From: Burkholderiales bacterium
GTDB lineage: Bacteria > Pseudomonadota > Gammaproteobacteria > Burkholderiales > SG8-41
Assembly (NCBI GenBank): GCA_019746155.1
Contig: JAIESJ010000226.1
Location: forward strand, 1-59,145
DNA length: 59,145 nucleotides
Reading direction: 5' to 3'
The notes beneath the pieces were generated by a model. That model worked only from the letters and a program-made list of their open reading frames with translations. It had not been told where the DNA came from and searched no databases. The position numbers and the translations under genes are program-made. Positions 16,083 to 41,343 of this stretch are shown here, piece after piece. Numbering within the stretch: the stretch's first letter is position 1; every line of letters begins with the position of its first letter.

Positions 16083-16087
16083 TGGCG

Positions 16088-16564: not shown

Positions 16565-16740
16565 CGGGTCCCCCGCGTGCTGCCGCGGATACGGCCAAGG
16601 TGTTCGAGAATGCTGCGTTTTCTGAGTATCAGCAGCACGATCTCGGTGATCATCAGTCCGAGCGTCACGCCATAGGATCCCCATACGTAGAGCGCGTAAC
16701 CGCCCATCGCGAAAAAATCGTTCCAGCTTGCCCAGTTCAT
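16561..16740 (-). CDS. ccmD: heme exporter protein CcmD
   Basis: 59 aa ([37 protein letters not shown]...). ATG 16740 overlaps the ccmC stop (ATGA). It is visible as the C-terminal part of track ORF 16561..17382. Confidence 0.8.
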
Positions 16741-17525: not shown

Positions 17526-17598
17526 TATCCGTAGTAAGGCCAGAAGCCGTAACTATACAGGGTTCGACAATGAAATTGGAATCCGGTTGCCTTCGCGG

Positions 17599-18267: not shown

Positions 18268-18268
18268 C

Positions 18269-23823: not shown

Positions 23824-26253
23824 CTATAGCCGCACGCGGTTGAGCCGCAACGCATTGGTCACCACCGATACCGAACTGAAGCTCATCGCGGCGGCGGCAA
23901 TGATCGGGGAGAGCAATAGCCCGAAAAACGGATACAGTACGCCGGCGGCGATCGGCACGCCGAGCGCGTTGTAGATAAATGCGAAGAAAAGGTTTTGGCG
24001 AATGTTGCGCATGGTGGCGCGGCTTAAGCGCCGCGCCCGCACGATGCCGCGCAGATCGCCTTTCACGAGTGTCACGCCGGCGCTTTCCATCGCGACGTCG
24101 GTGCCGGTGCCCATCGCGATGCCGACTTGGGCCTGCGCCAGGGCCGGGGCATCGTTGATGCCGTCGCCTGCCATCGCGACGACCCGGCCCTCCGCCTGCA
24201 ACTGTTTGATGACCGCCGTCTTCTGTTCGGGCAGCACTTCGGCGGTAACGCGGTCGATGCCGAGCTTGCGCGCCACCGCCTCGGCGGTGACGCGGTTGTC
24301 TCCCGTGAGCATCACGACTTTCAAGCCTTCCTCGTGCAGCGCGCGGATCGCCTCGGGGGTGGAATCCTTGATCGGATCGGCCACCCCGATCAGGCCGGCC
24401 GGCTTGCCGGCTATGGTCACGAACATCACGGTCTGGCCTTCGGCCCGCAGCGCAGCCGCCTGCTCGTCGAGCGCGCCAGGATCGATGTTGAGGTTCTCCA
24501 GCAGCTTGCGATTGCCGATGGCCACTGCCCGCCCGTTGACCTGGCCGTTGACGCCTTTGCCCGTTATCGACTGGAAGTCCGTGACCGGAAACAACACGAG
24601 CTTCTTCTCCTCCGCGCCGCCGACGATCGCGGCGGCAAGCGGGTGCTCGCTGGCGCGCTCCAGGCTGGCGCCGAGCTGGAGAATATCGTCTTCGCGGAAG
24701 CCATTTGCAGCCACCACGCGGGTCAGGCGCGGCTTGCCGACGGTGAGCGTGCCGGTCTTGTCGCACACCAGTGTGTCGACCTTCTCCAGGATCTCGAGCG
24801 CTTCCGCGTTCTTGATCAGCACGCCGGCGGTGGCGCCGCGACCGGTGCCGACCATAATCGACATCGGCGTTGCCAGCCCCAACGCGCACGGGCAGGCGAT
24901 GATCAGCACCGCGACCGCGTTGATGAGGGCGTGGGCAAGGCGCGGTTCAGGCCCCCACAAACCCCAGACAATCAGGGTAACCACCGCAATCGCCACGACC
25001 GCCGGCACGAAATAACCCGAAACTACGTCGACGAGGCGCTGGATCGGGGCGCGGCTGCGTTGCGCCTCGCTCACCATGTGCACAATCTGCGCCAGCAGCG
25101 TGTCGGTGCCGACGCGCTCGGCCTGCATCAGCAAACCGCCCGTGCCGTTCACGGTGGCGCCGATCACGCGGTCCCCCGGGTGCTTTTCCGCCGGGATCGA
25201 TTCGCCGGTGACCATCGACTCGTCGACAGCGCTCGATCCTTCCACGACCACGCCGTCCACCGGCACCTTCTCGCCGGGACGCACGCGCAGTCTGTCGCCC
25301 GGTTTGACCTGTTCGAGCGGGATGTCCTCTTCGCGGCCGTCGGCGCGCACGATGCGCGCGGTTTTTGGCGCGAGTCCCAGCAGCATTTTGATCGCGGCGC
25401 TGGTGCGGCTGCGGGCGCGCAATTCGAGCACCTGGCCGAGCAGGACCAGCGCGGTGATCACCGCGGCCGCTTCGAAATAGACCGGAACGATGCCGTCTTT
25501 CGTCGCTACCGTTGCGGGAAAGAGCCCCGGCGCAAACGTTCCGACCACACTGTAGAGCCAGGCCACTCCGACGCCCAGTGCGATCAGGGTGAACATGTTG
25601 AGGTGGCGATTGACGACCGACTGCCAGCCGCGCACGAACAATGGCCAGCCTGCCCACACCACCGCAGGCGTGGCGAGCAGGAACTCGACCCACTGCAGCG
25701 GGCGGGCGGAGATGAACCGGCTGGCCAGATCGGGCCAAAGATCGGCCACCGTGGCCATGACGAACACGGGCGCGGCGAGCGCGGTGCTCACCCAGAAACG
25801 CCGCGTCATGTCGGTGAGCTCGACGTTCTCCTCCTCGATGGCGGCGACCCGCGGCTCGAGCGCCATGCCGCAGATCGGGCAGTCGCCCGGTTCATTGCGC
25901 ACGATTTCCGGGTGCATCGGGCAGACGTATTCGGTGCGCGTGGCCGCGGGCTGGGCGGTTTCCGGCTCGAGCGCCATGCCGCACTTCGGGCAGGATCCCG
26001 GGCCCTGCTGACGCACTTCGGGATGCATCGGGCAGGTATACATCGCGGCAGGCGGTTGAGTGGACGCACCGCCGCTGGCGCCGGCCCTGTGCACGCGCAC
26101 GGGTTGCGGCTTGTTTAAATAACCGGCCGGATCGGCTTCGAATCTGGCTCCGCAGTGCGCGGAGCAAAAGTAATAGGTTACCCCTTCGTGGACACGTGTG
26201 GTTGCCGCGGATTTTTCATCCACCGTCATGCCGCATACCGGATCGGTCGCCAT
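23824..26253 (-). CDS. copA: Cu(I)-translocating P1B-1 ATPase (CopA) with TRASH/YHS-like and two CPMHPE-type N-terminal metal-binding modules
   Basis: Motifs [39 protein letters not shown]...P and MSFSS are present. Start set to ATG 26253 ([11 protein letters not shown]...) with a GGAGA RBS; the track ORF runs to 26349. Confidence 0.92.
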
Positions 26254-26382
26254 ATTGTCTCCTGTTGACAAATTCGCTTTATCCACAAACAAAACCTGAG
26301 CGCGTCTTACCCGGGAAACAGCGCGCATGCGGGGCGATGTCGCCGGCACTTATGCCTATGCATGGTCTGCATTCCTGATTCT

Positions 26383-27899: not shown

Positions 27900-28165
27900 G
27901 GGCGAGACGGGTTTGAACTGCAGCGTTCCCTTATGGTGATGGCCGCCCGGCGGATCACCTTGCCATTTGACGGGCGAGTAGGTCATGCTGCGTGTTCCTT
28001 GGTGAATTGCCAAATGAGTTCGCCGGTCTTCCCTGTTCGCGCAGCGACTTCTCGTCTCCCAGCACCATTTCGTGCGGCGGCTGCCCGACGTTCCGGAGCA
28101 CGATCCTCACGGTCTCGCCCCGCTTTACCGTGAATTGGGCGTGGTTGAAGCGCATGCTGATAACG
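27900..28165 (-). pseudogene. Decayed cupredoxin (plastocyanin/azurin-like copper protein) gene
   Basis: RFNHAQFTVKRGETVRIVLRNVGQPPHEMVLGDEKSLREQ is in one frame, GKTGELIWQFTKE in a second, and a His-rich PGGHHHKGTLQF remnant in a third. This implies frameshifts and an internal deletion. Confidence 0.4.
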
Positions 28166-28209
28166 CACAAGTTGCGCTGCACAGGGATGTCATCTCTGTC
28201 GAAAGGGGG

Positions 28210-28507
28210 CGGTGGTTTCGTAATCGAAGTAAGCAACCCCGGTGACGATATTTCCCCCGAGCATCTGCCCAGAATTCTCGGTCGATTCTACCGGGTCGAC
28301 ATTTCGCGGGGTAAATCGCAATCGTCATTTGGACTTGGCCTTGCCTTCGTGAAGTCCATCATGACGTTATACAACGGAGATGTTCACGTCGAAAGCGTGC
28401 CGAATGGATTTACGACATTCAGGTTGATCTTTCCAACAGGGCGAGCGCATCGCCCGCGGTATCGACATGCACCACGCCGCTTTCATGCAGAGCGAGCATT
28501 GCTGTAA
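28210..28507 (+). pseudogene. 3' fragment of a CusS/CopS-type histidine kinase (HATPase_c only)
   Basis: [73 protein letters not shown] parallels the C-terminus of the intact kinase at 54385-55803. No upstream kinase sequence is present. Confidence 0.7.
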
Positions 28508-28531: not shown

Positions 28532-28882
28532 TCAAATGGTGATTCCGAAACGGGCAAGGACAGGCACGGCTATCGCGTAGCACGCGAGCATGACGGCGAT
28601 CGATATGCCGAGGCTCGCATAGAAGCCGATCCCCGATTTCAGCAGCGCCGGCAATACCAGAAACATCGGCAGCGTCGGCAGCACCAGCCAGAACGTGCTG
28701 ACCGAAAGCTCGGCGATTTTTCCGGTATCTCGCGTGTCGAGATAAAGCCAGATCATGGCCAGAATGGAAATCAGCGGCAGCGATTTGATCAGCGCGCCGA
28801 GCCCGGCGTTGACCTTGGCGACTTCGGACACCGCGACGATGATCAGCGCGGAAAGAACGAGCTTGGTTGCGTAGTACAGCAT
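28532..28882 (-). CDS. DUF3147-family small membrane protein
   Basis: MLYYATKLVLSALIIVAVSEVAKVNAGLGALIKSLPLISILAMIWLY..., four hydrophobic helices. Start set to ATG 28882; the track ORF runs to 28924. Confidence 0.6.
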   Translation of the reverse strand: MLYYATKLVLSALIIVAVSEVAKVNAGLGALIKSLPLISILAMIWLYLDTRDTGKIAELSVSTFWLVLPTLPMFLVLPALLKSGIGFYASLGISIAVMLACYAIAVPVLARFGITI

Positions 28883-29002
28883 GGTTATCTCCTGGGTGCG
28901 GGCGATCCGCCGCACCGCAGGCACATCTTACTGCATCGGCGCAAAAATGACCTCGCCGCAGCGCAATGCCGCTGTCGGTTATCCTGCCGCCCGGCTTAAG
29001 AC

Positions 29003-29698
29003 TCAAACGGCCAATGCGGGAATCACCAGGAAATAGGCGTTCAACATGTAAAGCCCCGAAAGGATTAACGCGACACCGCCGGCGATTTCGAAGGCTTTCT
29101 GGAAGCCGGTCAAGGCTTTGAGGCTTTCCAGCCACCCGACCGTCCACGCACCCAGAATAATGGGAATCGCGCGCCCCAGCGCAAATGCAAACAACAGGGT
29201 GACACCGAAAAGCACCGAGCCGATGCCTGCCGCCACCCCGAGCAGAATCACCAGCACAGGTGTGCAAAAGGGGCAGACCGCTATGGAAAACGGCACGCCC
29301 AACGCGAAAGCTCCCCATGCCGTGGCGGCGCGTTCGGCGCGGAAGCTGAGGGCCGGCAGCGGCAGGCGGATCCAGCCCGGCCACGCGAGCCCCAACACGA
29401 TCAACAGGGGACCGAGCACCAGCCCCCACTCGCGCCCGAGGAGCTTTTGCACCCAGCTGCCGCCCAGGCTCGCGATCAGACCCAGCAACACGTGCGTGAC
29501 GATCATCCCGAGGATGAACATGCCGCCGAAGAGGAGTGCTTTCCGGGGCTGGTGTGCCTTGGTCACGTAGGCCAGTGAAACCGGTATCGCGGCGACCGCG
29601 ACCGGATTGAAGCTGAACAGGAATCCGGCCGCCAGGCCGATGCCAAGCGAGGCGGCGTTTGCTTGTTCCAGCGTACTTCTTAACGCATCGAGGTCCAT
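29003..29698 (-). CDS. CcdA/DsbD-type transmembrane thiol-disulfide electron transporter
   Basis: 231 aa, 6 TM, with an in-membrane Cys pair (CPFCTP). Confidence 0.7.
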   Translation of the reverse strand: MDLDALRSTLEQANAASLGIGLAAGFLFSFNPVAVAAIPVSLAYVTKAHQPRKALLFGGMFILGMIVTHVLLGLIASLGGSWVQKLLGREWGLVLGPLLIVLGLAWPGWIRLPLPALSFRAERAATAWGAFALGVPFSIAVCPFCTPVLVILLGVAAGIGSVLFGVTLLFAFALGRAIPIILGAWTVGWLESLKALTGFQKAFEIAGGVALILSGLYMLNAYFLVIPALAV

Positions 29699-29743
29699 GA
29701 GGCGAAATCCATGTTGACGATGCCGGGGAATGGCGTCGGGAGG

Positions 29744-30013
29744 CTAGCGCGCCTGCCCGAGACGCCTGATGAGCTCCGCGCGCAAGCGGTTCGGACTGGG
29801 CAGTGCGGGGAAAACGAGCTCCCCGTCGATCGCGATGGCGGGAGCAGACAGTATTCCGAGCTCGACCGCGTAATCCATCTCTTCCAGGATGTTCACGTCG
29901 CGCCAGCTAATCCGCTCCCGCCCGAGCTCTTCGACAATGGCTTTGAGCATTTCCTTCGCCTGGGCGCACTTGCCGCAGCCGGGTGAGGAGAACGCTTCGA
30001 TTTTGATGGTCAT
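29744..30013 (-). CDS. small thioredoxin-fold protein (CxxC, no signal peptide)
   Basis: 89 aa (MTIKIEAFSSPGCGKCAQAKEML...). ATG 30013 overlaps the MerR-family stop (ATGA); the track ORF runs to 30217. Confidence 0.7.
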   Translation of the reverse strand: MTIKIEAFSSPGCGKCAQAKEMLKAIVEELGRERISWRDVNILEEMDYAVELGILSAPAIAIDGELVFPALPSPNRLRAELIRRLGQAR

Positions 30014-30444
30014 TGATGGGCTCCCGATCGCGCGTTCTGTCCCGCGATGCTCGACTCGAGTGCGGCGAGTATCGGGCACTCGTCCAGCGGCTTCGCGTCG
30101 TGGGAGCAGACCTCGATCAGTTGATTCAGCGCCTGTGACATGGTCTTGAGCGCCTTGATCTTGCTCTCGAGTTGCAGCTTCTTCTCCACGGCCACGCGGT
30201 AGACATCGTTGCAGCATGACTGGTCATGGCCCTTGAGCTCGAGGAGCTCGCGGATCTCCGACAGCGAGAATCCGCACTGTTGCGCGTGCTTGATGAAGTT
30301 GATCCGGCGTACCGCTTCCTCGGTATAGAGCCGGTAGCCCGACTCGCTTTTCTGCGCAGGGCTGAGCAGACCTTCACGTTCATAAAAGCGGATGCTGTCC
30401 GCGCTGACCTGCGCGCGCGCGGCGACCTTGCCGATGGTGAGCAT
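30010..30444 (-). CDS. MerR-family heavy-metal-responsive regulator with Cys77/78-Cys113-Cys123 arrangement
   Basis: N-terminal wHTH (MLTIGKVAARAQVSADSIRFYEREGLL), a coiled-coil, and a CSHDAKPLDEC metal loop. Start at ATG 30444 with a GGAGG RBS; the track ORF runs to 30498. Confidence 0.85.
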   Translation of the reverse strand: MLTIGKVAARAQVSADSIRFYEREGLLSPAQKSESGYRLYTEEAVRRINFIKHAQQCGFSLSEIRELLELKGHDQSCCNDVYRVAVEKKLQLESKIKALKTMSQALNQLIEVCSHDAKPLDECPILAALESSIAGQNARSGAHQ

Positions 30445-30501
30445 AAACGCCTCCGGTTGAGGCCGGGTTGAATGCCTGGCGGTTGACAGTGAATTCACGG
30501 G

Positions 30502-30852
30502 TTAACGCCCTGTTTCCAATACCTCTATCGATTTGACGAGCTTCTCGCTTTTATCTGTGACATAGCTGACCGCCACAAGTTTTCCGCGCAGCGCGGGAAG
30601 ATAGAGATCTTCCTTGCCTTTTTTGATCGGGGTGCCGAGAGCGACCTTGAGGGTTATCTGATCCGGCTTGGCTCCTCCTTTGGTTTCGAGCGTAAGGTAG
30701 CCCTCGCATCCGCCGGGCTTAAACTGACAGGCGGTCAGCTTGGTGCTCACAACCGTTCCTTCAGCTTTTTCCTGGCCGAACCCAACTGATGGAAATAACA
30801 TTAACACAGACAATAATGCAGCGGGCAGGCTTAAGCCCAATCTTCTAAACAT
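30502..30852 (-). CDS. secreted 116-aa protein with C-x6-C pair, unknown function
   Basis: Signal peptide (LSLPAALLSVLMLFPSVGFG) and a mature part containing CQFKPGGC. Overlaps the stop of the upstream ABC ATPase by 8 nt. Confidence 0.6.
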   Translation of the reverse strand: MFRRLGLSLPAALLSVLMLFPSVGFGQEKAEGTVVSTKLTACQFKPGGCEGYLTLETKGGAKPDQITLKVALGTPIKKGKEDLYLPALRGKLVAVSYVTDKSEKLVKSIEVLETGR

Positions 30853-31714
30853 AAGGTTTGCTCCTTTCCTGGTTTAACGGTGGATCATGGGGTGCTGCCG
30901 ACTCGTCGTGCGAGGTGAGCCGGCCATCCTTGATATACACGATCCGGTCGGCCAACTGCGCCAAAGGTTCGGCGTGAGTTACCACGATCACCGTGCGCTC
31001 CGTGGCGATTTCCTTGAGCAGCTCGTAGATCATCTGCCCGGTTTTCGAGTCGAGATTTCCGGTGGGCTCGTCGGCCAGGATCAGCGGCGGATCGTTGGCA
31101 AGCGCCCGCGCGATCGCGACGCGCTGCTGTTCTCCGCCCGACAGCTCGCGGGGTTTGTGGTTCAGACGTTGCGCCAGGCCCACCCGCGAGAGCAGCTCTT
31201 TCGCGCGCCGACGCCGCGCGTCACGCGCGACGCCGTTGAATTCCATCGGCAGCATCACATTCTCCAGCGCGTCGAGGTTGGGGATGAGATTAAAACTCTG
31301 GAACACGAAGCCCACGGTTTGGCGTCGGAAACTGGTAAGGCTCGCTTCGGAGCGCGCGCTCAGAGATTGGCCGGCCACGATCACTTCGCCCGCCGTCGGC
31401 CGGTCCATGGCGCCGATAACGTGAAGCAGTGAGGATTTGCCGCTGCCACTCGCGCCAACGAGGGCGACCATACCACGCTCAGGCACTGTGAGGTTAATCC
31501 CGTCAAGCGCCTTCACGACCTGGGCACCGCGCTGATAGATCTTGCTGACGTCCCGCAGTGCAATTACTGAGGGCACCGCCAAATAGTGCGTAGTTGTAGG
31601 TCGGCAATCCTTTGCCGACACCCCGGCGGGAAGGGATTCCCGTCCTACGGCCCGTGCATGATTTCGTGGCCGTGTCAATAATGTGCCCCGGTCGCTGGTG
31701 TCGGTTTTATTCAT
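30845..31714 (-). CDS. ABC transporter ATP-binding protein (LolD/MacB-type)
   Basis: Walker [10 protein letters not shown], signature LSGGEQQRV, Walker [12 protein letters not shown]. Start set to ATG 31714 (MNKTD...); the track ORF runs to 31786. Confidence 0.88.
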
Positions 31715-32969
31715 GTCGAATCGCCTCCATGGGAGATAGTCGTATGATCTGCCTGATGCTCCATGCGCTTCCCGCGATTGCGGCAAAAAGACACGCCATG
31801 ATCAGAATCCCGAGCGTTGCCGGCCCGAATCTTGGCGTTAAAGCAAGAGTGCTGGCGAGCGTGTTGTAGTGCGCTGGAAGGAAAGGGGTGATTCCCAGCC
31901 CGAAAATCAATTGTGCGAGCGGCCCGCCCCCCAGCGCAAAGAGGAGCGCTCCCGTCAAGGCGCCTATGGCGCACATCAGGACCGCCTCGGTAAGAAAACC
32001 GATGACTATGCCCGAATTCGATGCCCCGAGCGCCTTGAAGGTGCCGATCTCCCATGCGCGTTCGCGAACCACCAGCAACATCACGAAGAAGATAACGATC
32101 ACCATCAGCGCTGCGGCGAGCGCAATTCCGCTGCTTGCCAGACGTTGCACCGCACGCGTCGCGGTCGTCTGGAATTCGGCTACCGTCGTGGGTGAAATGA
32201 TGTCCGCAACATTACCCAGCGTGGCCCTGAGCTCCTTCTCAACTGCGGGAAGGTGCTCGGCGGAATCGGCACGCACGTAAAGCCACGAAATACCTTCGCG
32301 CACGCCGTAGACCTCGCGGAACGTGTCGAGCGGCATAAATAGCTGCATATCGCCGAAAACGTACCCACTTGCGTAAATGCCGACGATAGTGAGCGTCACG
32401 GGCGGACGATCCAGGGCGAAGATCACAGGATGGGTGCGCTTGAAATCGAGTGTGAGCGTCGCTTGTCCGATATCTTGCGGCTTTAAACCCGCCCACTTGG
32501 CAAAGCCCTGGCCGATGATTGCCACGCGCTTGCCGCGGTCCGCCTCCGTGAGATCGCGGCCGGCGATGATTTTTGGATTACCGGCTTCGCCATGCGATTC
32601 AAGCCGCCGCGTGTCATCCGGATCGACGCCGACCACCATGGCGAAGTTGTGGCCTTCGGTGGGGGTCATGGCAAGAAGGTAGGGCTCCGCTTTCGCGACG
32701 TGATCCACGCTTTTTACCTTCGCCAGCGCGTCCTGCGGCAGAATGTCTTCGTTACCGACCATATTGACGTGGCCCATCGAGCCGCGCGCCCGCAACTGGA
32801 GCGTGTTGTTGACGCTCTCCTTCAACACGTCGGTTTGCCGTTGCACGGCATCGCCAATCGACTCCATCACGAGGAGCAGGAAGAACGGCGTGCCGATGAG
32901 CGCAGCCACGAGAACGAGGCGCAGCTTGCTCCGCCAGAGATTGCGTACGCCTATACGGACCATGCTCAT
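31707..32969 (-). CDS. FtsX/MacB-type ABC permease with large periplasmic domain (second of two)
   Basis: 420 aa with an N-terminal motif VRNLWRSKLR, one TM, a periplasmic domain of about 220 aa, and three C-terminal TMs. Confidence 0.85.
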   Translation of the reverse strand: MSMVRIGVRNLWRSKLRLVLVAALIGTPFFLLLVMESIGDAVQRQTDVLKESVNNTLQLRARGSMGHVNMVGNEDILPQDALAKVKSVDHVAKAEPYLLAMTPTEGHNFAMVVGVDPDDTRRLESHGEAGNPKIIAGRDLTEADRGKRVAIIGQGFAKWAGLKPQDIGQATLTLDFKRTHPVIFALDRPPVTLTIVGIYASGYVFGDMQLFMPLDTFREVYGVREGISWLYVRADSAEHLPAVEKELRATLGNVADIISPTTVAEFQTTATRAVQRLASSGIALAAALMVIVIFFVMLLVVRERAWEIGTFKALGASNSGIVIGFLTEAVLMCAIGALTGALLFALGGGPLAQLIFGLGITPFLPAHYNTLASTLALTPRFGPATLGILIMACLFAAIAGSAWSIRQIIRLSPMEAIRHE

Positions 32970-34192
32970 GCCGTCCTCCGCATCGCTTCGACGGGGCTCA
33001 GCCGCAAGCCCCGGATGACCGGGTAGATGCTTCCCAGCGCGGCAAAAACCATCGATCCCACCAGAATCAACAGGACGACGTCGCGATCGAACTCCATCGG
33101 CACTCCAAGAACGCGCCCGACCACCGCTGTAAGCGGCGCTGCGAGCAGCAATGCGCCCGCACCGCCCAGCGCGCTCATCGTGAAAGCTTCAGAAAGAAAC
33201 TGCAACACGACTTCACGATTCGACGCGCCGAGTGCTTTGAGCGTACCGATTTCGCATATGCGCTCGCGCGTGCTCAGGATCATGACGAACACGGTGAGTA
33301 CGGCTCCGATCGCAAAGAGCAACACGGCCGCATACGTGCTCGCCACGGCAAGAGTTCCCAACGTCACGCGGGCCGTCGAGACGGATTCCGGCGCGGTCAC
33401 CACATCCGCTTCCGGGATGCTCTTCAAGTCGGCGACCACCCGTTCGACATTCGCCACCGAGTCTACGGTGACAAAGATTTTTGAGAGTTTTTTGCCGGGA
33501 TTGAAAGTTTCGCGAAACGCCGCAATCGGAATGAAGACATGGTTGTCGCCGAAGTCGTTGGCGGTCGTATAGATGCCGATCACGCGGAACGACTGTTTGT
33601 TGAACACGATGTGGCGTTCCACGCCTTCGAGAGCGGAAGGGTCAGCAAGCCCCAGGCGCTGTTCCGCATACAGACGGCCCACGATCGCGACGTTCGCATT
33701 CTCGTCTTCCGCCGCGAGGGAACGGCCTGCGACGATACGGGCGTTTTCGTAATCGACCTCGCCGATCGCGCGCAGCGCGGCCCCGGGATGAAGGCCGATC
33801 ACCATGGCATACGCATTTTTTTTCGACGGATCGACCTCCGGTTTGTAAACATATTCGTCGACGCGGGCCAAATGGCGAGCGCTTGGAGTTCTTAAAACCG
33901 CTTGGAGCGTATCCACGGAGAAATGCTCTTCGCCTACCGGCTTGTCACCCCCGAAGCCACCCGTTCCAAAGGCGCCCGCTTCGCGCAGCTCGATAAGCGT
34001 GCGAATGCGTCCTTCCATGCCGGAGACCTGTGCGCGGCTCGCGAAGGACGCTTGCACCATCAGGGCAAGAAAGCCCGTTACTATCGAGAGCAGCACCACG
34101 ACCACCACGGCTCTCGCTCTGTTTCGGAATGGGTTGATGAAACCGCGGCCAATCGCGCTCACGGCTACGCTCTGAAGTGCGCCATCACGCAT
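32966..34192 (-). CDS. FtsX/MacB-type ABC permease with large periplasmic domain (first of two)
   Basis: Same architecture as the neighbouring permease but clearly diverged. 4-nt overlap with the next gene. The start is ambiguous (ATG 34192 or 34231). Confidence 0.85.
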   Translation of the reverse strand: MRDGALQSVAVSAIGRGFINPFRNRARAVVVVVLLSIVTGFLALMVQASFASRAQVSGMEGRIRTLIELREAGAFGTGGFGGDKPVGEEHFSVDTLQAVLRTPSARHLARVDEYVYKPEVDPSKKNAYAMVIGLHPGAALRAIGEVDYENARIVAGRSLAAEDENANVAIVGRLYAEQRLGLADPSALEGVERHIVFNKQSFRVIGIYTTANDFGDNHVFIPIAAFRETFNPGKKLSKIFVTVDSVANVERVVADLKSIPEADVVTAPESVSTARVTLGTLAVASTYAAVLLFAIGAVLTVFVMILSTRERICEIGTLKALGASNREVVLQFLSEAFTMSALGGAGALLLAAPLTAVVGRVLGVPMEFDRDVVLLILVGSMVFAALGSIYPVIRGLRLSPVEAMRRTA

Positions 34193-34366
34193 CTTCCCTG
34201 GTTCGTGAATTCCGCCGCACGTTGTTCGCATAGCTTGAAAAACTCCAATAGCAAGCGGATTACTTGATCAAACCAAGCCTGATTTTGATTTGCCATAATG
34301 ATCAAGACGGCCATATCTTCGGCATAATTCCGCGCAAGATCGTCCTCGATCGATCCCACTCGACTC

Positions 34367-36820
34367 TCACGCCGCGTGCGCAATTGCGCTCGGGGGCGAG
34401 CCGCCTACGCTGCGCACGGCGTTGAAAAACAGAGACGCCTTTCCCCACAGCGAGTTGAAGAAGATCGCGGTGACACTGCCCGCCATCGCTGCCATTGCCC
34501 ACACCGGGTAGATAAGGCCCGTTGCGGCAACTGGAATGCCGATGCCGTTAAAGCAGAACGCGAGCACTACGTTCTGCACCATCTTGCGATAACCGCGGCG
34601 ACTGATGTCGCGGGCAACAAGAATCGATTCGAGACGATTGCCGAGAATGATGATGTCGGCGGACTCGATTGCGATGTCCGTGCCGCTGCCCATCGCGATG
34701 CCGACGTCCGCCTGCATCAGCGCAGGGGCGTCATTGATGCCGTCGCCGACCATCGCAACTTTGCCTCCTTGCTGTAGCTGGCGAATGATTTCTGCTTTTC
34801 CGTTAGGCAGCACACCCGCGTACACTTCGTCGATGCCAGCCTCGCGCGCTACGCGGTTAGCCGCGCGCTCGTTGTCGCCGGTGAGAAGAATGGGCTTGAT
34901 GCCGGCTTTGCGAAGCGCGGCAACTGTTTCAGCTGCGTCGGCGCGCAGGCGGTCACCCAGCGCGATGATGCCGAGGACATTGCCGTTGCGCGCGATCGCG
35001 ATCACGGTGCGCCCGAGTTCCTCCAATTCCTGAATACGTGAAGGAAGAGAACCCAGTTCGACACCTTCTTCCTCTAAAAACTTCGGACTTCCAACCAAAA
35101 TAGCGGCCCCCTCGATTCGAGCTCTTACTCCGCGGCCTGGAACTGCTACAAAGTCCGTTACCTCAACCGGCGTCACCTTGCGCTCAAACGCGATGTTTAC
35201 TATCGCCTGAGCCAGGGGATGCTCCGAGGATGTTTCTGCAGCGGCCGCAATTCCCAGCAATTTTTCTTGCGACGCTTCCAAGCCGATGATCTCTTGCACG
35301 AGCGGCTTCCCTTCCGTCAGCGTACCAGTCTTGTCCAATACGACATACTTGACCAGCCGATAAGCTTGAAATGCTTCACCCGTGCGCATCAGGATGCCAC
35401 GCTCTGCCGCTTCGCCCGCACCACGCACGATCGAAAGCGGCGCCGAAATTCCTACCGCGCAGGGGTAGCCCATGACGAGCACGCTTAATCCGGCGAACAC
35501 GGCGCGCTCGATGTCGACCTGTCCGGCCACAAGCCACGAACCGATCACCCAACTGACCACCGCGAGGGTCGCGATAGCAAGCACGGTCGGCGTGTAGACC
35601 CGCAGCACGCGATCGACCAGGTGTAGCAGTCCCGGCTTTAAGGCCCGCGCGTCCTCGACATGGCGAATCACTTGCTGCAGGAAGCTATCTTCGCCGATTG
35701 CAGTGACACGCACCAGCAGGGTTCCGATGCGATTCATCGAGCCGCCGACGACTTTGCTGCCTTGAGCTTTTTCGACGGGTATCGGCTCCCCACTCACCAG
35801 GGATTCATCGACTGCCGAATGACCGCTGACGACCTCTCCGTCCACGGGAATGCGCTCGCCGGGACGAATCCGCACGCTGTCGCCGACCTTTACTCGCTCG
35901 ATCGGAATTTCCTCCTCCCGCTCGCCACGCACCACTCGCGCAGTCTGGGGCTGCAGGTCCAAGAGCTTCTTGACGGCCTGCAAGCTTCTGGTTTTGACGA
36001 TCAGGGACAGCCACTCCGAGAAAACATGGTAGGTAACCACCATCACGGAGACGGCAAAAAATGACGCGGTCGGATAACCCACGGGTTGCAAGGTGAGACC
36101 GATGAGGCCACCGGCGATACCGGCGAAAGCGCCGATCTCGAGCAACACATGCTGGTTAAGAATTCCTCGTTTCAGCGCCTGAATTGCCATCATCAGGATG
36201 TGATTGGCGAGAGCGAAGACCATGATCAGCGCGAAGGCTCCCGTAATCCATGGGGTTGCTGACGCTAACCAGCCCTGAGACTTCGCGTAGTACAAAGCAG
36301 CCCCCAGCAGACATAAGCCAACGGCCCCTGCGATCGCGATGCCGAGTCCGCGGGGAGTCAGAACTACGAAGAACAGCGCGACCATGCTTCCGAAGACGAT
36401 CAGTGCGAGCAGCGTCGACCAGAAGCCGACCGGGTTTGCCACCAGCGCAATCGCGGCCAGACTGAAGCCAATGGCTGCGATAAACCGTTGTCCCTCGTGT
36501 ACCAGCGCCGCCTCTTCCTCTTCGAACGGCCGCAGCTTGCGCGGATCAGAAATGGTATAGCCGATGTCTTTGAGCGTTTGCAGCAGCTCTTCGGGACGCG
36601 CGACCTTCGGGTCATACTCGATGAGCGCCTGCTCGTGGGTCAGACTCACCGCGACCTTCTCGACACCGGGACGCTTCCCGAGTGCCTTCTCGATTGTTCC
36701 CGTGCACAGCGAGCAATGCAGTCCGCCGATGCGGGCGCGGATACGCGCCCGATCGGGACGATTCGACGGTTCTTCACTCCAGTAGCCGGCACTGGATTCA
36801 AGGGTGGCGAGATTGCTCAT
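34367..36820 (-). CDS. P1B-type heavy-metal ATPase with non-canonical Y-P-C membrane motif
   Basis: N-terminal HMA domain (GGLHCSLC) plus DKTGTLTEG, TGDNERAA and [10 protein letters not shown]. The TM motif is GYPCAVG rather than CPC. Start at ATG 36820 (MSNLATL...); the track ORF runs to 36859. Confidence 0.9.
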   Translation of the reverse strand: MSNLATLESSAGYWSEEPSNRPDRARIRARIGGLHCSLCTGTIEKALGKRPGVEKVAVSLTHEQALIEYDPKVARPEELLQTLKDIGYTISDPRKLRPFEEEEAALVHEGQRFIAAIGFSLAAIALVANPVGFWSTLLALIVFGSMVALFFVVLTPRGLGIAIAGAVGLCLLGAALYYAKSQGWLASATPWITGAFALIMVFALANHILMMAIQALKRGILNQHVLLEIGAFAGIAGGLIGLTLQPVGYPTASFFAVSVMVVTYHVFSEWLSLIVKTRSLQAVKKLLDLQPQTARVVRGEREEEIPIERVKVGDSVRIRPGERIPVDGEVVSGHSAVDESLVSGEPIPVEKAQGSKVVGGSMNRIGTLLVRVTAIGEDSFLQQVIRHVEDARALKPGLLHLVDRVLRVYTPTVLAIATLAVVSWVIGSWLVAGQVDIERAVFAGLSVLVMGYPCAVGISAPLSIVRGAGEAAERGILMRTGEAFQAYRLVKYVVLDKTGTLTEGKPLVQEIIGLEASQEKLLGIAAAAETSSEHPLAQAIVNIAFERKVTPVEVTDFVAVPGRGVRARIEGAAILVGSPKFLEEEGVELGSLPSRIQELEELGRTVIAIARNGNVLGIIALGDRLRADAAETVAALRKAGIKPILLTGDNERAANRVAREAGIDEVYAGVLPNGKAEIIRQLQQGGKVAMVGDGINDAPALMQADVGIAMGSGTDIAIESADIIILGNRLESILVARDISRRGYRKMVQNVVLAFCFNGIGIPVAATGLIYPVWAMAAMAGSVTAIFFNSLWGKASLFFNAVRSVGGSPPSAIAHAA

Positions 36821-36873
36821 GTTGTCACCTCGTTTTTGTAGCGCGCATCGTGATATCACGATGCCAGTCGATT

Positions 36874-37101
36874 TCAGCCATCGCGGCGGCCCGCGACGCG
36901 AAAACCACCTTTTTCGATCGTTGCAGTCAATTGTTCTTCGTTGACGGTCTGGGGATCGTAAAGCACTCGGGCTTCACCATCCTTGAACGATACGGCCGCT
37001 TTGCGGACGCCGCCGTTTCTCTCGAGAAGCGCCTGGATCGTCGCAGCACAACCGTCGCAGTGCATGCTTTCAACCTTAAATGTGACACTGTTCACCGCCA
37101 T
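36874..37101 (-). CDS. copZ: cytoplasmic heavy-metal-associated (HMA) chaperone, CopZ-like
   Basis: 75 aa with the ferredoxin-like HMA motif ESMHCDGCA and an AGGAGA RBS. Confidence 0.85.
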   Translation of the reverse strand: MAVNSVTFKVESMHCDGCAATIQALLERNGGVRKAAVSFKDGEARVLYDPQTVNEEQLTATIEKGGFRVAGRRDG

Positions 37102-37159: not shown

Positions 37160-37190
37160 ATCTAAACCTTGGAGATAACTCCAAAGTCAA
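37160..37190 (-). promoter_or_regulatory. MerR-type promoter/operator upstream of copZ and the ATPase
   Basis: The minus strand reads TTGACT-TTGGAGTTATCTCCAAGGT-(T)TAGATT. The spacer is 19-20 bp and contains the dyad CTTTGGAG-N4-CTCCAAGG. Confidence 0.7.
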
Positions 37191-37263: not shown

Positions 37264-37827
37264 TTACTGGGCGTGCTTAACGCTATCGAGGAACCTGAGA
37301 TAGCTCTCGGGCAGCCCGTGTGCTCGTGCGCCCTCGCGGAGCAGCGTGATGTAGCGCAGCGATGGGTTACCATCCGCTTCGTTGCCGTCGGCAATGTAGG
37401 TCACCGCCTGGAGCGGCCGCCCGTCGATGTCTTCCGCATCAACCCATAGCGGACGGTAGCGGGGCCCCGGAACGCCTTCCGTCGCGTCCAGATGAACGAG
37501 GTCACGGCGCGTGATGCGATAGAGCACGCCCCACACCTCCGCCTGCGGGTCTACAACCAGATTGGCCGGTGCGGCCTTGCCTTTCGGGCGCCCTTCGAGG
37601 TTGAAGCGCAGGCAATACCCGCGCACCCGGCCGGCACGCCATTCCAACGGCCGCATGCCGCGCCGCTCGCGAAAAGCGCTGTCATGCATGTTGGCTCCGT
37701 AAGCGAAATACCAGATATTTTCTGTTGGAGGGCCGATAAGGCGGATGCCGTGGAGCCGGTAATAGCACCAGGAGAGCGCCCAGGACTTGGCCATGAGCCT
37801 GCGCAGCGTTCTTAACAGATTTCTCAT
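37264..37827 (-). CDS. gamma-glutamylcyclotransferase (GGCT/AIG2-like) fold protein, paralog 2
   Basis: 187 aa containing IWYFAYGANMHDSAFRERRGMRPLEW...VWGVLYRI. Similar along its length to the ORF at 40101-40631. Confidence 0.7.
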   Translation of the reverse strand: MRNLLRTLRRLMAKSWALSWCYYRLHGIRLIGPPTENIWYFAYGANMHDSAFRERRGMRPLEWRAGRVRGYCLRFNLEGRPKGKAAPANLVVDPQAEVWGVLYRITRRDLVHLDATEGVPGPRYRPLWVDAEDIDGRPLQAVTYIADGNEADGNPSLRYITLLREGARAHGLPESYLRFLDSVKHAQ

Positions 37828-39080
37828 CGCTCGCTGTCTCCAATCGGGATGGCGCGCAAGCGCCGGACCGTCAGGAATTGCACGGCGGCGGCGGTAAGGC
37901 TCACCGCAAAGACGGCGGCGAACGATCCCACTTCCGCCACCGCGCCGCCTGCCATCGGCAATAGCGCGGCTGGTGCGGCCAAGGCATTGAAGTAGCCGCT
38001 GTAAGCGGGGCGGCGGTCATCCGGCGAAATCTCCATCAGATAACCGAGGTAGGCGATGGTGCTGCCGTTCCCCACCGCGCCCAGGAGCGCGAAGACCACC
38101 GCGAAATAGGGTAGCGCCGCCGCGCCCCCACGCCCATCGTTGGCCATCCAGGCGAGGGTGAGGATCGGGGCCACGGCGCCGAGGGCGGCAACGATCTCCA
38201 GCAACTCGCGCTTGCCGCGCCGGTCCCCCCACCAGCCCCACAGGGGGTTGGAAAGCAATGCGCCTGCCGTCTGCGCCCCGAGCAGAAACGCCACGTCCGC
38301 CGCGGAATCTTTCGCCTGCAGGATGTAGAAGGGGAGCGCCATCGCCGCCGCGCCGCCGAGCCACTGTGCGATAAGGAAGAGGCGGAAGCGGCGGTCGCCG
38401 ACAAAGGTATCAAGACCACCACGCAGGAACTTCAGGAAGCCCGCTGCAACTGAAGGTTCCATCGGAGCCGTCGGCTCGCCGGCTGAAACGAAGGATACTG
38501 CAGAGATGAGGAGCAAGACCGCGCCGAGCAGCAGCAATGCCGCATAGCCGCCGGGGAACGGCAGGGCCTGGAGTATCCGGTACGCTGCTGCGGCCACGGC
38601 AAGCGCGAGGAGACCCCCGCCGAAGAAGCGGAGCGCCAGCATCCGGCTGCGCTGCGCCGCGGGGATTGAACGGGCGACGATGTCATTGTATGGCACCGCC
38701 ACGATGCCGCTGACGAAGGCATAGAGGGTCCAGAGCGCGAAGAATAGCGCGACCGCGGACGCACCCGGCGGATCGACTGCCAACCACAGCAATGCGGCGA
38801 GACCGGCGAGACACGCCACGCGTCCGAACGCGCCCGCCATGTAGAACGGCAGGCGCTGCGCGCGTCGCTGCGCGTAGTAAGCGACAAAGAGTTGCGGGAA
38901 CAGCCAGCCGAAACGGGCGATAGCCGCCGCCGCGCCGACTGCGAAGGCGCTGCCTGTTAGCCCATGCACAAGCGCCGCCACGACGGTGCTCGTATCGACT
39001 GCCGCCGCACCGCCCTGGAAAAAGATACCGGCGGCCGAGATGCGCCAGAAGCGCCGCTTCGACTCAGTCGCTTCGGACAC
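37824..39080 (-). CDS. MFS transporter
   Basis: 418 aa, about 12 hydrophobic helices. ATGA overlap with the downstream GGCT-like gene. Confidence 0.8.
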   Translation of the reverse strand: MSEATESKRRFWRISAAGIFFQGGAAAVDTSTVVAALVHGLTGSAFAVGAAAAIARFGWLFPQLFVAYYAQRRAQRLPFYMAGAFGRVACLAGLAALLWLAVDPPGASAVALFFALWTLYAFVSGIVAVPYNDIVARSIPAAQRSRMLALRFFGGGLLALAVAAAAYRILQALPFPGGYAALLLLGAVLLLISAVSFVSAGEPTAPMEPSVAAGFLKFLRGGLDTFVGDRRFRLFLIAQWLGGAAAMALPFYILQAKDSAADVAFLLGAQTAGALLSNPLWGWWGDRRGKRELLEIVAALGAVAPILTLAWMANDGRGGAAALPYFAVVFALLGAVGNGSTIAYLGYLMEISPDDRRPAYSGYFNALAAPAALLPMAGGAVAEVGSFAAVFAVSLTAAAVQFLTVRRLRAIPIGDSER

Positions 39081-40104
39081 GCTGCGCTCCCGCTTCCCGC
39101 AGGTCGGCGAGCACCACGCCTTGGCGCCACAGCGCCAGGGCGCCGATACTGGCGACGGTCAAGAGGTTCGACGCCTGCACCACCAGCACCATCGCGAGCG
39201 CCTTCTCTTCGCCGACGTCGAAGAGCCCGAGCGCGAAAATCGCGCCGATCACGAAGCTGCCCGGAATTTTCGCGAAAGCGCCAGCAATGTGCACGAACCC
39301 CAGGAACACCATCAGGAATAGGTACTGCGCCGTCTGCAAACCAGCGCCGAAGGCGAGGCCTGCCCACAGGAAATGCGTGGCGGCGAAAAGCTTGATGGTG
39401 ACGCTTGCGGCGACGATGCCGAAACCGCGCCAGAATTCGCGCGGCCAGACGATGCCTGTTGCGAAAGAGGCTGCAACGCGCTTCACGGGTCCGAGGACGC
39501 GCGCCGGCAGGCGCTCGATCGATCGCATGAACCATCCGCCCGGACGCAATGTCCTGCGCTTGTAGAGTGAAAGCGCGAGCAGCAGCACCGCGAACAATAC
39601 GAAGCTGCCGGAAGCGGCCCACGTGAGCCCCGCGCGAATATCGCCGGTCGGATCAGGGAAGACCACGAGCAGCAGCGCAACCGGTACGAGCAGCGCGAAG
39701 ATAATGCCGTCGGTCACGCGGTCGATGGCAACGGTCGCAAGCACGGCGCTCATCGCCAAGCTCTCGCGACGGGCGACGAGCCAGGCGCGCGCCAGCGCGC
39801 TGAAGCCGAAGGGAATGAGCAGTCCCGCCAAGTAACCCGCCATGATCGCGCCGAACAGATGAAGCGTACCGATGGACCGCATCGGGTAGAGGATCTGGCG
39901 CCATTTCCAGGCCCGCACCAACTGCTCGCCCGCGATAGCGAGCGGCACCAGCAGCAGCAAGCGAACGTCGGCGCCGGCGAGGACGGTGCGAAAACTGTCG
40001 AGATCGAAGCGCCGCAGCACCCAGGCGAGCGCCGCAATGCCGACCAGTGCGCCGAGCCACGGCCACCGTCGGCGCCAGCGGCTCCCCGCCGCGATTTCCG
40101 TCAC
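39064..40104 (-). CDS. MprF-type flippase-like membrane protein (LPG_synthase_TM/UPF0104-like)
   Basis: 346 aa, about 8 TM, with the N-terminus RRRWPWLGALVGIAALAWVLRRFDLDSFRTVLAGADVRLL typical of this family. No synthase domain is present. Confidence 0.6.
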   Translation of the reverse strand: MTEIAAGSRWRRRWPWLGALVGIAALAWVLRRFDLDSFRTVLAGADVRLLLLVPLAIAGEQLVRAWKWRQILYPMRSIGTLHLFGAIMAGYLAGLLIPFGFSALARAWLVARRESLAMSAVLATVAIDRVTDGIIFALLVPVALLLVVFPDPTGDIRAGLTWAASGSFVLFAVLLLALSLYKRRTLRPGGWFMRSIERLPARVLGPVKRVAASFATGIVWPREFWRGFGIVAASVTIKLFAATHFLWAGLAFGAGLQTAQYLFLMVFLGFVHIAGAFAKIPGSFVIGAIFALGLFDVGEEKALAMVLVVQASNLLTVASIGALALWRQGVVLADLREAGAQRVRSD

Positions 40105-40656: not shown

Positions 40657-41343
40657 TCAAGCTTCAGTTCGATCCGGATATCCGGGATGTGAGCGCGCAA
40701 TCGACGCTCGCGCCGCTTGAGCTGGCTCACGCGCTGGGCGCGCTTGCGACGCCCTGCCGACCGCGACGATGCGCACATCCAGCGCTTTGCCTTTGGGCGC
40801 GCGACGCACTGATGAACGCCCCGTGCTGCAACCACAGAATTCACACATAGTTTCCTCCTTGCTTTCGAACTTTTCCGGATGAGAGGCGCGGGACGATTGT
40901 GCTCGCTCCGCCGGTCGCATGCAGCCGCATGTGTCCCATGTGCACTTCCGGCCCGCAGGCTGTCGCACGGGTGATATGAGATCTTCAATCGCCGTGCGTA
41001 GACCCATAAGATGACGAATCCGCTGGTCGATCTCGTGCAGGTGCCTTCTCAGGATCTGCTGGTACTCAGGCTGTCGGCTCGGACAGCCTCTGTCTTGGGC
41101 AAGAGCGACCATTTCGCGGATGTCGGCGAGGCTCAGGCCGAACAGCCGCGCATGGTGAATGAACTTCAGCCGGCCCACATCGGCTTCGGTGTAGAGGCGG
41201 TGGCCCGCGGTGTGCACCCCGCCGTTGGTCCGGCCCGCCTTGGGAATCAGACCAATCTCCTCATAGTAGCGGATGGTCTTGACGGATAGGTCGGATGCCT
41301 TGGCTGCCTCGCCGATCGAGAAAGTAACAGGTCGATCCATCAC
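40657..41343 (-). CDS. atypical MerR-family regulator with long Cys-rich C-terminal extension
   Basis: 228 aa with the wHTH FSIGEAAKASDLSVKTIRYYEEIGLI and a coiled-coil, followed by CTWDTCGC. An in-frame SD-preceded MCEFCGC segment follows that. AAGGAG RBS. Confidence 0.75.
   Translation of the reverse strand: MMDRPVTFSIGEAAKASDLSVKTIRYYEEIGLIPKAGRTNGGVHTAGHRLYTEADVGRLKFIHHARLFGLSLADIREMVALAQDRGCPSRQPEYQQILRRHLHEIDQRIRHLMGLRTAIEDLISPVRQPAGRKCTWDTCGCMRPAERAQSSRASHPEKFESKEETMCEFCGCSTGRSSVRRAPKGKALDVRIVAVGRASQARPAREPAQAARASIARSHPGYPDRTEA

Follow-up and report, generated by a model that had tools for sequence, protein, structure and literature searches.

A recurring gene set of environmental bacteria that unites a type VII ABC cassette, a YPC-type P1B ATPase and a secreted Cys-pair protein, with a probable soft-metal function in the envelope

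The substrates known so far for ATP-binding cassette (ABC) systems of type VII are lipoproteins, antibiotics, haem and cell-wall enzymes. P1B ATPases handle metals, and those that have been characterised are overwhelmingly exporters; in the P1B-1 Cu(I)/Ag(I) ATPases, the membrane site is formed by the motifs CPC, YN and MxxSS. We have analysed a stretch of 59,145 bp (hereafter the window), which is the whole of contig JAIESJ010000226.1 of a Burkholderiales metagenome-assembled genome (MAG). On its minus strand, at ~28.9-37.2 kb, both kinds of transporter are encoded together with a secreted 116-aa Cys-pair protein (small116), a MerR-family regulator, a thioredoxin-fold protein and a DsbD-like membrane protein. 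This is a real, recurring gene set of environmental bacteria, and its composition, folds, synteny and promoter architecture are what the analysis shows. Judged from these features, the system probably has a soft-metal function in the envelope. We read the region as a copy of a mobile system that is conserved, controlled by MerR and directed at thiophilic ("soft") metals, a reading to which we give a probability of roughly 0.45. The features of the region are as follows.

37160-37190, minus strand: MerR-type promoter/operator (TTGACT, 19-bp spacer, TTAGAT)
36874-37101, minus strand: cytoplasmic CopZ-like HMA metallochaperone of 75 aa with MHCDGC (NCBIfam UxxU_metal_bind/CopZ, all below cut-off)
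34367-36859, minus strand: P1B-type ATPase with an N-terminal HMA domain (TIGR01525, 573.8 bits; TIGR01511, 475 bits)
32966-34231, minus strand: permease 1 (perm1), MacB/FtsX type, type VII ABC (Pfam MacB_PCD and FtsX)
31707-32969, minus strand: permease 2 (perm2), MacB/FtsX type (Pfam, AlphaFold2 model, Foldseek)
30845-31714, minus strand: ABC ATPase resembling LolD and the nucleotide-binding domain (NBD) of MacB (ABC_tran, E 1.5e-33)
30502-30852, minus strand: small116, secreted protein of 116 aa with a predicted OB fold (AlphaFold2 model, homologue alignment)
30010-30444, minus strand: MerR-family metal sensor of the three-cysteine, divalent type (Pfam MerR_1 and MerR-DNA-bind)
29744-30013, minus strand: cytoplasmic thioredoxin-fold (Trx) protein with CGKC (Thioredoxin_3)
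29003-29698, minus strand: non-canonical DsbD_TM-fold membrane protein (Pfam DsbD_TM/DsbD_2)
28532-28882, minus strand: PRK09272-type small membrane protein, neighbour only (NCBIfam NF006749, 139.6 bits)

A sequence-only reading of this DNA had described the last eight genes listed as one minus-strand run. All eight open reading frames (ORFs) were recovered, and so were four start/stop overlaps. Two overlaps are ATGA (perm1/perm2 at 32966-32969, merR/trx at 30010-30013) and two are 8 nt long, namely ATGAATAA between perm2 and the ABC ATPase (31707-31714) and ATGTTTAG between the ABC ATPase and small116 (30845-30852). They chain perm1 through small116, and also merR with trx, in translational coupling. 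The proposed span (28532-34231) proved too short, since the P1B ATPase and CopZ-like genes, which lie on the same strand directly upstream of the ABC genes, and the MerR-type promoter belong to the unit. The domain assignments by hidden Markov models recovered MacB_PCD, FtsX, ABC_tran, DsbD_2/DsbD_TM and Thioredoxin_3 as had been expected, but not DUF3147.

Several described systems resemble this set in part. LolCDE-LolA has the same two unlike permeases of the MacB/FtsX type with large periplasmic domains, one separate ATPase, no adaptor and a soluble periplasmic partner protein. However, the candidate partner in the window is a predicted 90-residue Cys-pair OB fold encoded inside the operon, and the system stands under a MerR-type promoter, is tied to a P1B pump and has no evident lipoprotein substrate. 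The permeases share four transmembrane (TM) helices, a periplasmic domain of the Porter/Sabre type and an N-terminal stalk helix with those of MacAB-TolC, HrtBA, FtsEX and YbbAP, and the mechanotransmission mechanism of type VII exporters is presumed for them as well. Unlike in MacAB-TolC and other type VII exporters, the NBD is unfused, the permeases are heteromeric and a MacA-type adaptor is missing; neither the operon nor the related loci with annotation had a TolC-type gene.

In the relay from CopA through CusF to CusCBA, too, metal control extends over a P1B ATPase, a small carrier in the periplasm and a machine that spends energy in the envelope; the OB fold of the carrier has a predicted, weakly matching counterpart in small116. 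In small116, a Cys pair stands in place of the Met/His/Trp residues of CusF, the two proteins are not homologous in sequence, and the machine of the window is an ATP-driven type VII ABC, whereas CusCBA is an RND pump driven by the proton motive force. Apart from the set, the window encodes a true CusCBA at 47-53 kb, in which CusB and CusF are fused. With the mer operon the set shares a three-Cys MerR sensor, a dyad promoter with a 19-bp spacer, a periplasmic Cys-pair protein and membrane proteins with intramembrane Cys pairs, and it frequently adjoins real mer operons. Nevertheless, the window has no homologues of MerA, MerT or MerP, its periplasmic protein has a predicted OB fold instead of an HMA fold, and mer operons contain nothing equivalent to its ABC machine and P1B ATPase. 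As in the thiol-reducing pathways DsbD/CcdA and ScsABCD, which are linked to copper tolerance, genes for a cytoplasmic thioredoxin-fold protein and a DsbD_TM-fold protein lie side by side in a setting of metal stress, and the candidate client is a Cys protein of the periplasm. The membrane protein of the window differs from these in having no Cys in TM1, a CPFC motif in TM4 and no periplasmic thioredoxin-like domain, and other loci carry a protein with EPC and PAC motifs ("CcdA2") or a canonical form of 283 aa in its place. Each part comes from a known superfamily. The claim that no characterised metal-resistance system has this composition held, as no published description of the combination was found in open-access text; the only ftsX mentioned for the Corynebacterium CopRS regulon is that of cell division.

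We have scanned genomes and metagenomes with a small116 profile (10 + 59 loci) and added loci by single-protein look-ups, which gave 65 small116 loci after deduplication. They come from bacteria of soil, sediment and groundwater. Forty-eight loci with at least 0.9 kb upstream of small116 served for the position test, and in 38 of these an ABC gene ended at most 400 nt from small116. Nearly all of the remaining 10 carried the ABC genes in the same locus in one of two layouts, either with an extra gene between ABC and small116 or with small116 ahead of an HMA-P1B-ABC block (L019, L059, L065). Gene content was compared in the 17 long-flank loci, whose sequence reaches at least 6 kb upstream and 3 kb downstream. 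The ABC cassette, the YPC-type P1B ATPase, a MerR regulator and a DsbD-superfamily membrane protein, the latter of three different kinds, were found in 17/17, a CopZ-like HMA protein in 15/17 and a Trx-like gene in 11/17. This bore out, for all 17 loci, the expectation that the gene set travels together and next to P1B ATPases, and the P1B ATPase, which the earlier unit did not include, is a core member. The gene at 28532-28882, earlier labelled DUF3147, is not a member. It occurs in one of the 17 loci, namely the window, and is absent from the other 16; a 120-nt gap divides it from the preceding gene, and its product has no Pfam match at E ≤ 0.01 and matches only the "hypothetical protein" model PRK09272 of NCBIfam. 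It is therefore no conserved part of the system.

Orthologues of perm1 are 60-81% identical across loci, and the order and content of modules vary. Among the carriers are Betaproteobacteria (Burkholderiales, Herminiimonas, and Rhodocyclaceae, among them the isolate Aromatoleum toluclasticum with locus L018 at 61-82 kb of contig KB899504.1, GCA_000378245.1), an Acidiferrobacteraceae MAG, a Bradyrhizobium MAG and bins labelled Rokubacteria and Dehalococcoidia. Transposase or integrase genes adjoin several loci, which agrees with a mobile island. A DNA search of plasmids matched only a 98-bp conserved ABC stretch, and protein searches of plasmids with perm2 and small116 gave no match, so the system does not appear to reside on sequenced plasmids. 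One metagenome contig (L021:1055-14631) holds two ABC cassettes, the second starting at 12003 after MerR2, LPG_synthase_TM and MFS genes.

The promoter at 37160-37190 precedes the genes of the CopZ-like protein and the P1B ATPase, and its spacer contains the dyad TTGGAG-TTAT-CTCCAAGGT. A near-identical operator lies at 46840-46816, upstream of a second YPC-type ATPase gene (44202-46706). The motif TTGACYYTGG-N8-CCAAGGT had 0 matches in 100 shuffles of the window and is thus not expected by chance. We have then scanned 726 kb of loci for this operator class, allowing at most one mismatch and counting as upstream those sites that were co-directional with a gene and up to 450 nt ahead of it. Seventeen sites were found, 16 of them upstream of system genes: eight precede HMA/P1B, four perm1 (L010, L019, L058, L062) and four merR. 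Three of the four merR sites belong to stand-alone merR-trx-ccdA-like operons, in Thiobacillus denitrificans, Sulfurirhabdus autotrophica and one metagenome contig, in which the MerR type of the window is the only regulator present. Because the same operator precedes operons with this MerR type only, the window MerR (30010-30444) can be tied to it. The distribution of sites shows that the P1B ATPase, the ABC cassette and the Trx/DsbD-like genes stand under the same kind of predicted switch, and makes metal control of the gene set plausible. No MerR-type promoter was found in the 57-nt gap between small116 and merR or in the gap between the P1B ATPase and perm1 of the window. The latter gap contains an inverted repeat at 34263-34306 on the minus strand (CTTGATCA ... 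TGATCAAG, 8-bp arms, 28-nt loop), which is not a MerR-type site.

The regulator was confirmed as a MerR-family protein by Pfam (MerR_1/MerR-DNA-bind), and alignment placed its ligand residues at C77/C78, C113, H115 and C123. It has a Cys at the position equivalent to C79 of ZntR, the mark of divalent-metal sensors. ZntR is also its top NCBIfam model, with scores below the cut-offs (PRK09514, 130.4 vs 143 bits; TIGR02043, 122 vs 167.95 bits), and ZntR equivalence was rejected on these scores. Other loci have MerR-HMA fusions or CueR-like loops in place of this MerR type. The regulator is thus of the divalent Zn/Cd/Pb/Hg type, the ATPase resembles Cu(I)/Ag(I) pumps, and the set adjoins copper genes in the window and mer genes elsewhere. 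Naming one metal from regulator residues, ATPase motifs and neighbours was rejected, since these signals conflict; the predicted metal can be placed within the soft-metal group only.

The P1B ATPase (34367-36859) scored above the TIGR01511 cut-off (475 vs 397 bits) and contains HMA, E1-E2_ATPase and Hydrolase domains; its start is likely the ATG at 36820. The family model itself is met, but motif comparison led us to reject the canonical P1B-1 membrane site for both YPC-type ATPases of the window. They have YPC for CPC, FN for YN and M-A-x-S-V-T for MxxSS, and these motifs are kept in seven orthologues from other loci. The third ATPase of the window (23824-26349) has canonical CPC, YN and MSFSS motifs and corresponds to CopA. 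The YPC-type P1B ATPases are an unstudied class. The sole mention of a YPC-motif ATPase that we found in the literature is the metagenomic CopAL6, which, alone in an Escherichia coli delta-copA strain, decreased copper resistance and increased copper accumulation (PMC11082258).

The two-permease assignment was supported by MacB_PCD and FtsX matches in both 420-aa proteins (Pfam, E 1e-12 to 1e-17), and the permeases are diverged as had been described (~29-30% identity). A Shine-Dalgarno check indicated M14 at 34192 as the probable true start of perm1. The AlphaFold2 (AF2) model of perm2, with a predicted local distance difference test score (pLDDT) of 77, has MacB topology: a helix at residues 15-53, a periplasmic domain at 56-258 and three more TM helices, giving four in all. 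Its closest solved folds in Foldseek were LolE in LolCDE (E 3.7e-16) and then MacB, the matches to these two spanning E 1e-16 to 1e-13; the pneumococcal Spr0694-0695 transporter, HrtB, YbbP and FtsX matched as well. Because of this topology and these best matches to solved structures, the reading as a two-permease type VII ABC is sound. Two periplasmic loops of perm2 are invariant, GSMGHVNM (residues 63-70) and RLESHGEAG (122-130). Their Met/His residues are candidate contact or metal sites and fall in low-confidence loops of the AF2 model.

A single ATPase accompanies the permeases, with the ABC_tran match given above. Its top NCBIfam models are LolD, MacB-NBD and FtsE, all sub-threshold, with DarD and YbbA also among the best. 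If the overlapping ATG is its start, it has a low-complexity N-terminal extension of ~55 aa; the orthologues (224-240 aa) have none. LolC/LolE/LolD orthology was rejected on scores far from the cut-offs (LolD model, 239.3 vs 307.75 bits; lolCE model on the permeases, 37.9 and 40.9 vs 362 bits). MacAB-TolC membership was likewise rejected, as the NBD is a separate gene, an adaptor gene is missing and the MacB model is sub-threshold (36.6 vs 966 bits). No HlyD-type adaptor or TolC-type factor is encoded within 28.5-37.2 kb, and neither the operon nor the loci annotated with Pfam (L001, L004, L018 and L019) contain a gene of the HlyD family. The description as adaptor-less and without an outer-membrane (OM) factor therefore stood for HlyD/TolC-type genes, but not beyond them, since an OM barrel gene and an NHL gene co-travel with the system. 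PADLOC gave only generic ABC/FtsX matches, and a role in anti-phage defence was rejected. In four proteins (P0277, P0239, P0256 and P0281), the N-terminus of perm1 or perm2 is joined directly to the C-terminal part of small116; these are either deletion variants or artefacts of assembly or gene calling.

small116 is indeed a secreted C-x6-C protein, with a signal peptide and the pair C42-x6-C49. Both Cys are invariant in 28 homologues (motif CxFKPGGCEG). The AF2 model (pLDDT 78) is a small beta barrel with a predicted mature core of ~90 residues in an OB fold, in which C42 and C49 flank the loop that joins the first two beta strands. The protein has no Pfam or NCBIfam family and no lipobox. 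Its homologues form 93 clusters, all environmental, and only 106 representatives were found among 1.84 billion proteins. The top Foldseek matches were CusF/SilF, weak (E about 1e-2, TM-score 0.42-0.65) and mixed with SSB OB folds. Sequence homology to CusF was rejected, as hhalign against the CusF-domain protein of the window itself gave a probability of 0.2% and Pfam gave no match. The full-length protein has no His and two Met, both in the signal peptide, so that the mature protein lacks both residues and a metal site of the Met/His/Trp type of CusF was rejected. In distant relatives the Cys pair is kept, with a loop of 4-9 residues and, in some, extra Cys pairs. One clade (alignment A1, e.g. 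P0062, P0069, P0076) begins with MRRR(L/S/Q/R)F(L/M), which resembles a twin-arginine (Tat) signal, whereas the starts of the window protein (MFRRLGL) and of others are not Tat-like. The export route may therefore vary by clade. small116 constitutes a new family of periplasmic Cys-pair proteins.

The thioredoxin-fold protein was confirmed as cytoplasmic and of the CxxC kind (Thioredoxin_3, 37.9 vs 24.8 bits; CGKC; no signal peptide). Its best NCBIfam models are the MJ0307 family thioredoxin (49.8 bits, cut-off 92.75) and MTH895/ArsE (34.4 bits, cut-off 62). The membrane protein encoded next to it matched PF02683 (44.7 bits) and PF13386 (36.6 bits), both above the cut-offs, and its top NCBIfam model is the ArsG permease family (62.7 vs 200 bits). 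It had been described as a CcdA-type conduit, of which the DsbD_TM fold stood, but not the two-cysteine relay (one Cys in TM1, one in TM4, in P-C-x-x-P motifs). Aligned to a canonical DsbD (L003), its TM1 reads FNPVAV, with Val at the Cys column, and the Cys column of TM4 holds Phe, flanked as C-P-F-C. A standard CcdA/DsbD electron conduit was rejected on these grounds. In each of 120 close homologues, Cys occurs exactly twice, both times within CPxC, and the family has more than 2,100 matches; no solved-structure relative of the window protein was found by sequence. By its alignment, this protein is a non-canonical CPxC branch of the DsbD fold.

Three non-orthologous modules of thiol type follow or flank the ABC/small116 cassette: MerR-Trx-CPxC protein, as in the window; HMA with "CcdA2"; and YtkA-Trx-canonical two-Cys CcdA (283 aa)-periplasmic HMA. 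"CcdA2" is a protein of roughly 225 aa without a Pfam match, with GFIEPC(S/T) in TM1 and GLN(I/V)PAC in TM4. It was located at L004:5325-5999, L018:5881-6552 and L019:3788-4471, and also in L007, L009, L011 and L012; it adjoins small116, HMA and P1B genes and is absent from the window. A related protein of 204 aa is encoded inside stand-alone merR-trx operons (L015, L017). The MerR-Trx-CcdA-like unit is separable, as it occurs without the ABC genes in T. denitrificans, S. autotrophica and one metagenome contig. A Trx-like gene lies directly before perm1 in L054, L056, L064 and L074. In six loci, Trx-like genes have an in-frame TGA at the first Cys of CxxC (UGKC, UTKC, USKC; L001:10770, L046:3218, L054:6564, L056:3554, L064:860, L074:6535). 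Past the TGA the frame is kept, and 14-17 nt further downstream begins a hairpin that is conserved as well (GRCCARG-loop-UGGUC). These are probably selenocysteine forms, although no Rfam family (SECIS or other) was found in these loci. The proposed link between the periplasmic Cys protein and thiol-redox genes thus recurs through three modules, although the membrane protein of the window does not fit the canonical pattern. Genes of thiol type accompany small116 too regularly for the link to be set aside, and as a theme of these gene neighbourhoods it is plausible that Trx/DsbD-like proteins service a reduced Cys protein in the periplasm.

The soft-metal reading can be put as a relay of five steps. 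The three-cysteine MerR would sense cytoplasmic metal and activate promoters with a 19-bp spacer and the dyad TTGGAG-N4-CTCCAAGGT. The CopZ-like protein would pass the metal to the YPC-type P1B ATPase, which would carry it across the inner membrane. In the periplasm, small116 would take the metal on its conserved Cys pair in a CusF-like role. The heterodimeric type VII ABC would then move its periplasmic domains by ATP and act on small116 or its cargo, the two being a donor/acceptor pair, as LolCDE is with LolA, in which small116 is loaded or unloaded; the metal would be carried off the inner membrane, and the OM barrel and NHL proteins, where present, may be the next station. The thioredoxin-fold and DsbD-like proteins would keep periplasmic thiols usable, or move metal. 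The sequence-only reading, in which a metal-loaded substrate would be expelled or remodelled by the ABC machine, is purely inferred on this point. We hold the relay as a whole to be somewhat short of an even bet. A narrower form of it, in which a type VII ABC dedicated to metal, the YPC ATPase and a thiol OB-fold shuttle would make up a Lol-like relay for soft metals within one MerR regulon, and the cysteines of the shuttle would be serviced by (seleno)thioredoxin/DsbD-like proteins, is possible and distinctly more doubtful.

A number of points weigh against this relay. We know of no type VII ABC system that handles metal ions, and no route across the outer membrane is established. The fold match of small116 to CusF is weak and without sequence support, and its Cys pair could be a structural disulfide, given the variable loop length and the extra Cys pairs of some relatives. 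The DsbD-like protein of the window lacks, by alignment, the canonical cysteine relay. In the window, no operator belonging to the ABC genes themselves can be recognised, and we assume that they are co-transcribed from 37190; the simplest reading, which we infer, is a single long transcript that extends from there to at least 29003. The behaviour of CopAL6 is ill-suited to a simple exporter, a caution tempered by its being likened to the window ATPases by the YPC motif alone. Finally, the LysE superfamily, to which the DsbD family belongs, abounds in exporters and transporters of metal ions and includes amino-acid exporters too (PMC4608589). With ArsG as its best model, this superfamily and its Cys pattern, the window protein could equally well serve as metal permease or as electron carrier.

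These points leave room for other explanations. In one, which we consider rather improbable, the cassette serves envelope repair or quality control and not metal transport. The P1B ATPase would flood the periplasm with soft metal, and the ABC machine, like LolCDE, HrtBA or FtsEX, would act at the outer face of the inner membrane and extract or remodel lipoproteins, lipids or proteins that the metal has damaged. The Trx/DsbD-like proteins would mend wrong disulfides formed by metal catalysis, and small116 would be accessory or regulatory, like EnvC for FtsEX. LolE and MacB as the closest folds of perm2, with FtsX and HrtB matching too, and the LolCDE-like arrangement of adaptor-free heterodimeric permeases speak for this, as does the recurrence nearby of an MFS gene and of the lipid-flippase-like LPG_synthase_TM gene; moreover, E. 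coli needs DsbD (cutA2/dipZ) and DsbC under copper stress. However, scores with the LolC/E and LolD models fall far short of the cut-offs, the cassette contains no conserved lipoprotein gene and small116 has no lipobox. The cassette is also strictly paired with a metal pump, a CopZ-like protein and a conserved Cys pair, which indicates the metal itself as ligand. About as improbable is a mosaic, in which P1B/CopZ, ABC/small116 and MerR-Trx-CcdA-like are independent determinants that share a regulator and are adjacent only through the accretion of metal islands. The CPFC protein and its thioredoxin-fold partner would then be a permease and chaperone for a thiophilic metal(loid), cf. ArsG/ArsE and MerT/MerP, and no supply of reductant for small116. 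The stand-alone MerR-Trx-(204-aa)-CcdA-like operons of T. denitrificans, S. autotrophica and the metagenome contig fit this well. So do the more than 2,100 CcdA-like matches against 93 for small116, the missing TM1 Cys, the likeness of CPxC to the CPC metal site of P1B pumps, ArsG as the best NCBIfam model for the membrane protein (MTH895/ArsE is only second-best for the thioredoxin), the differing order and content of modules and the LysE-superfamily membership (PMC4608589). Accretion alone is unlikely to have placed a DsbD-superfamily gene, of three kinds, in 17/17 long-flank small116 loci, or Trx-like genes directly before perm1 in the four loci named above. Also at odds with a mosaic, merR-trx-ccdA-like in the window follows small116 without a promoter of its own, and the corresponding genes overlap or abut in L018 and L019.

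The least probable of the alternatives, in our estimate, is uptake or sequestration in the manner of mer, with the YPC ATPase and the periplasmic Cys protein bringing metal inwards, or holding it, for cytoplasmic detoxification such as by MerA, and the ABC machine feeding metal bound to small116 to the importer. That the P1B ATPases characterised so far are overwhelmingly exporters argues against it, and the window contains neither merA nor another cytoplasmic detoxifying enzyme; its neighbours are the copper efflux genes CusCBA, CusRS and a CPC-type CopA. The regulator is nonetheless of the three-Cys MerR/ZntR kind, and mer genes (merT, merP, merC, merE, merF, merA, merB) adjoin the system in L004, L015, L017, L018 and L019. 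CopAL6 raised copper accumulation and sensitivity in E. coli (PMC11082258), but the link of that protein to the window ATPases is the YPC motif only.

Further features of the window surround the set and recur to a varying extent among the loci.

37824-39080: MFS gene, recurrent island neighbour (Pfam)
39064-40104: LPG_synthase_TM gene, recurrent island neighbour (Pfam)
40657-41343: second MerR with a Cys-rich tail, recurrent island neighbour (Pfam)
41424-42404, minus strand: NHL beta-propeller gene, recurrent accessory (Pfam, NCBIfam)
42414-43310, minus strand: Phenol_MetA_deg outer-membrane barrel gene, recurrent accessory (Pfam, NCBIfam)
43674-44177, minus strand: DUF7482 gene, downstream of the second YPC ATPase
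44202-46706, minus strand: second YPC-type P1B ATPase, with its own operator copy at 46816-46840

The three genes first listed are likewise on the minus strand. The OM barrel and NHL genes stand directly upstream of perm1 in L005/L020, L018 and L063, and homologues of the MFS, LPG_synthase_TM and second MerR genes were found in L009, L019, L021, L036 and L075. The DUF7482 gene also recurs. The separate CusCBA set at 47-53 kb is part of a CusRS-CusCBA block that spans 47-56.5 kb; its CusB-type adaptor (50356-51984) is a fusion with a C-terminal CusF domain, and a separate CusF-domain protein of 215 aa is encoded at 57978-58625. At 27955-28507 on the minus strand, a cupredoxin-like fragment (...VKRGETVRIVLRNVGQPPHEMVLG...) was seen by eye, without a Pfam match; it overlaps, on the opposite (plus) strand, the sequence for the C-terminus of a histidine-kinase ATPase domain. 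These fragments look like gene remnants at the edge of an island module. In the left part of the window, a strong DsbD_2 protein (7666-8415, 166.9 bits) adjoins hemN, ccoG and an FNR-like gene, and cytochrome c maturation genes of the System I type lie at 11828-18895 (CcmB, a CcmD-containing ORF, CcmF, CycH/CcmH); no evidence links either to the metal island.

This work defines a class of YPC-type P1B ATPases, the small116 family, a CPxC branch of the DsbD fold and a shared operator, which would allow regulon prediction in genomes. The cultured carrier A. toluclasticum makes the system testable. If it is true that the ABC machine acts on a metal or a metal carrier, mechanotransmission by type VII systems would extend to metal ions, and RND pumps and oxidases would be joined by a third energy-driven means of removing soft metals from the periplasm.

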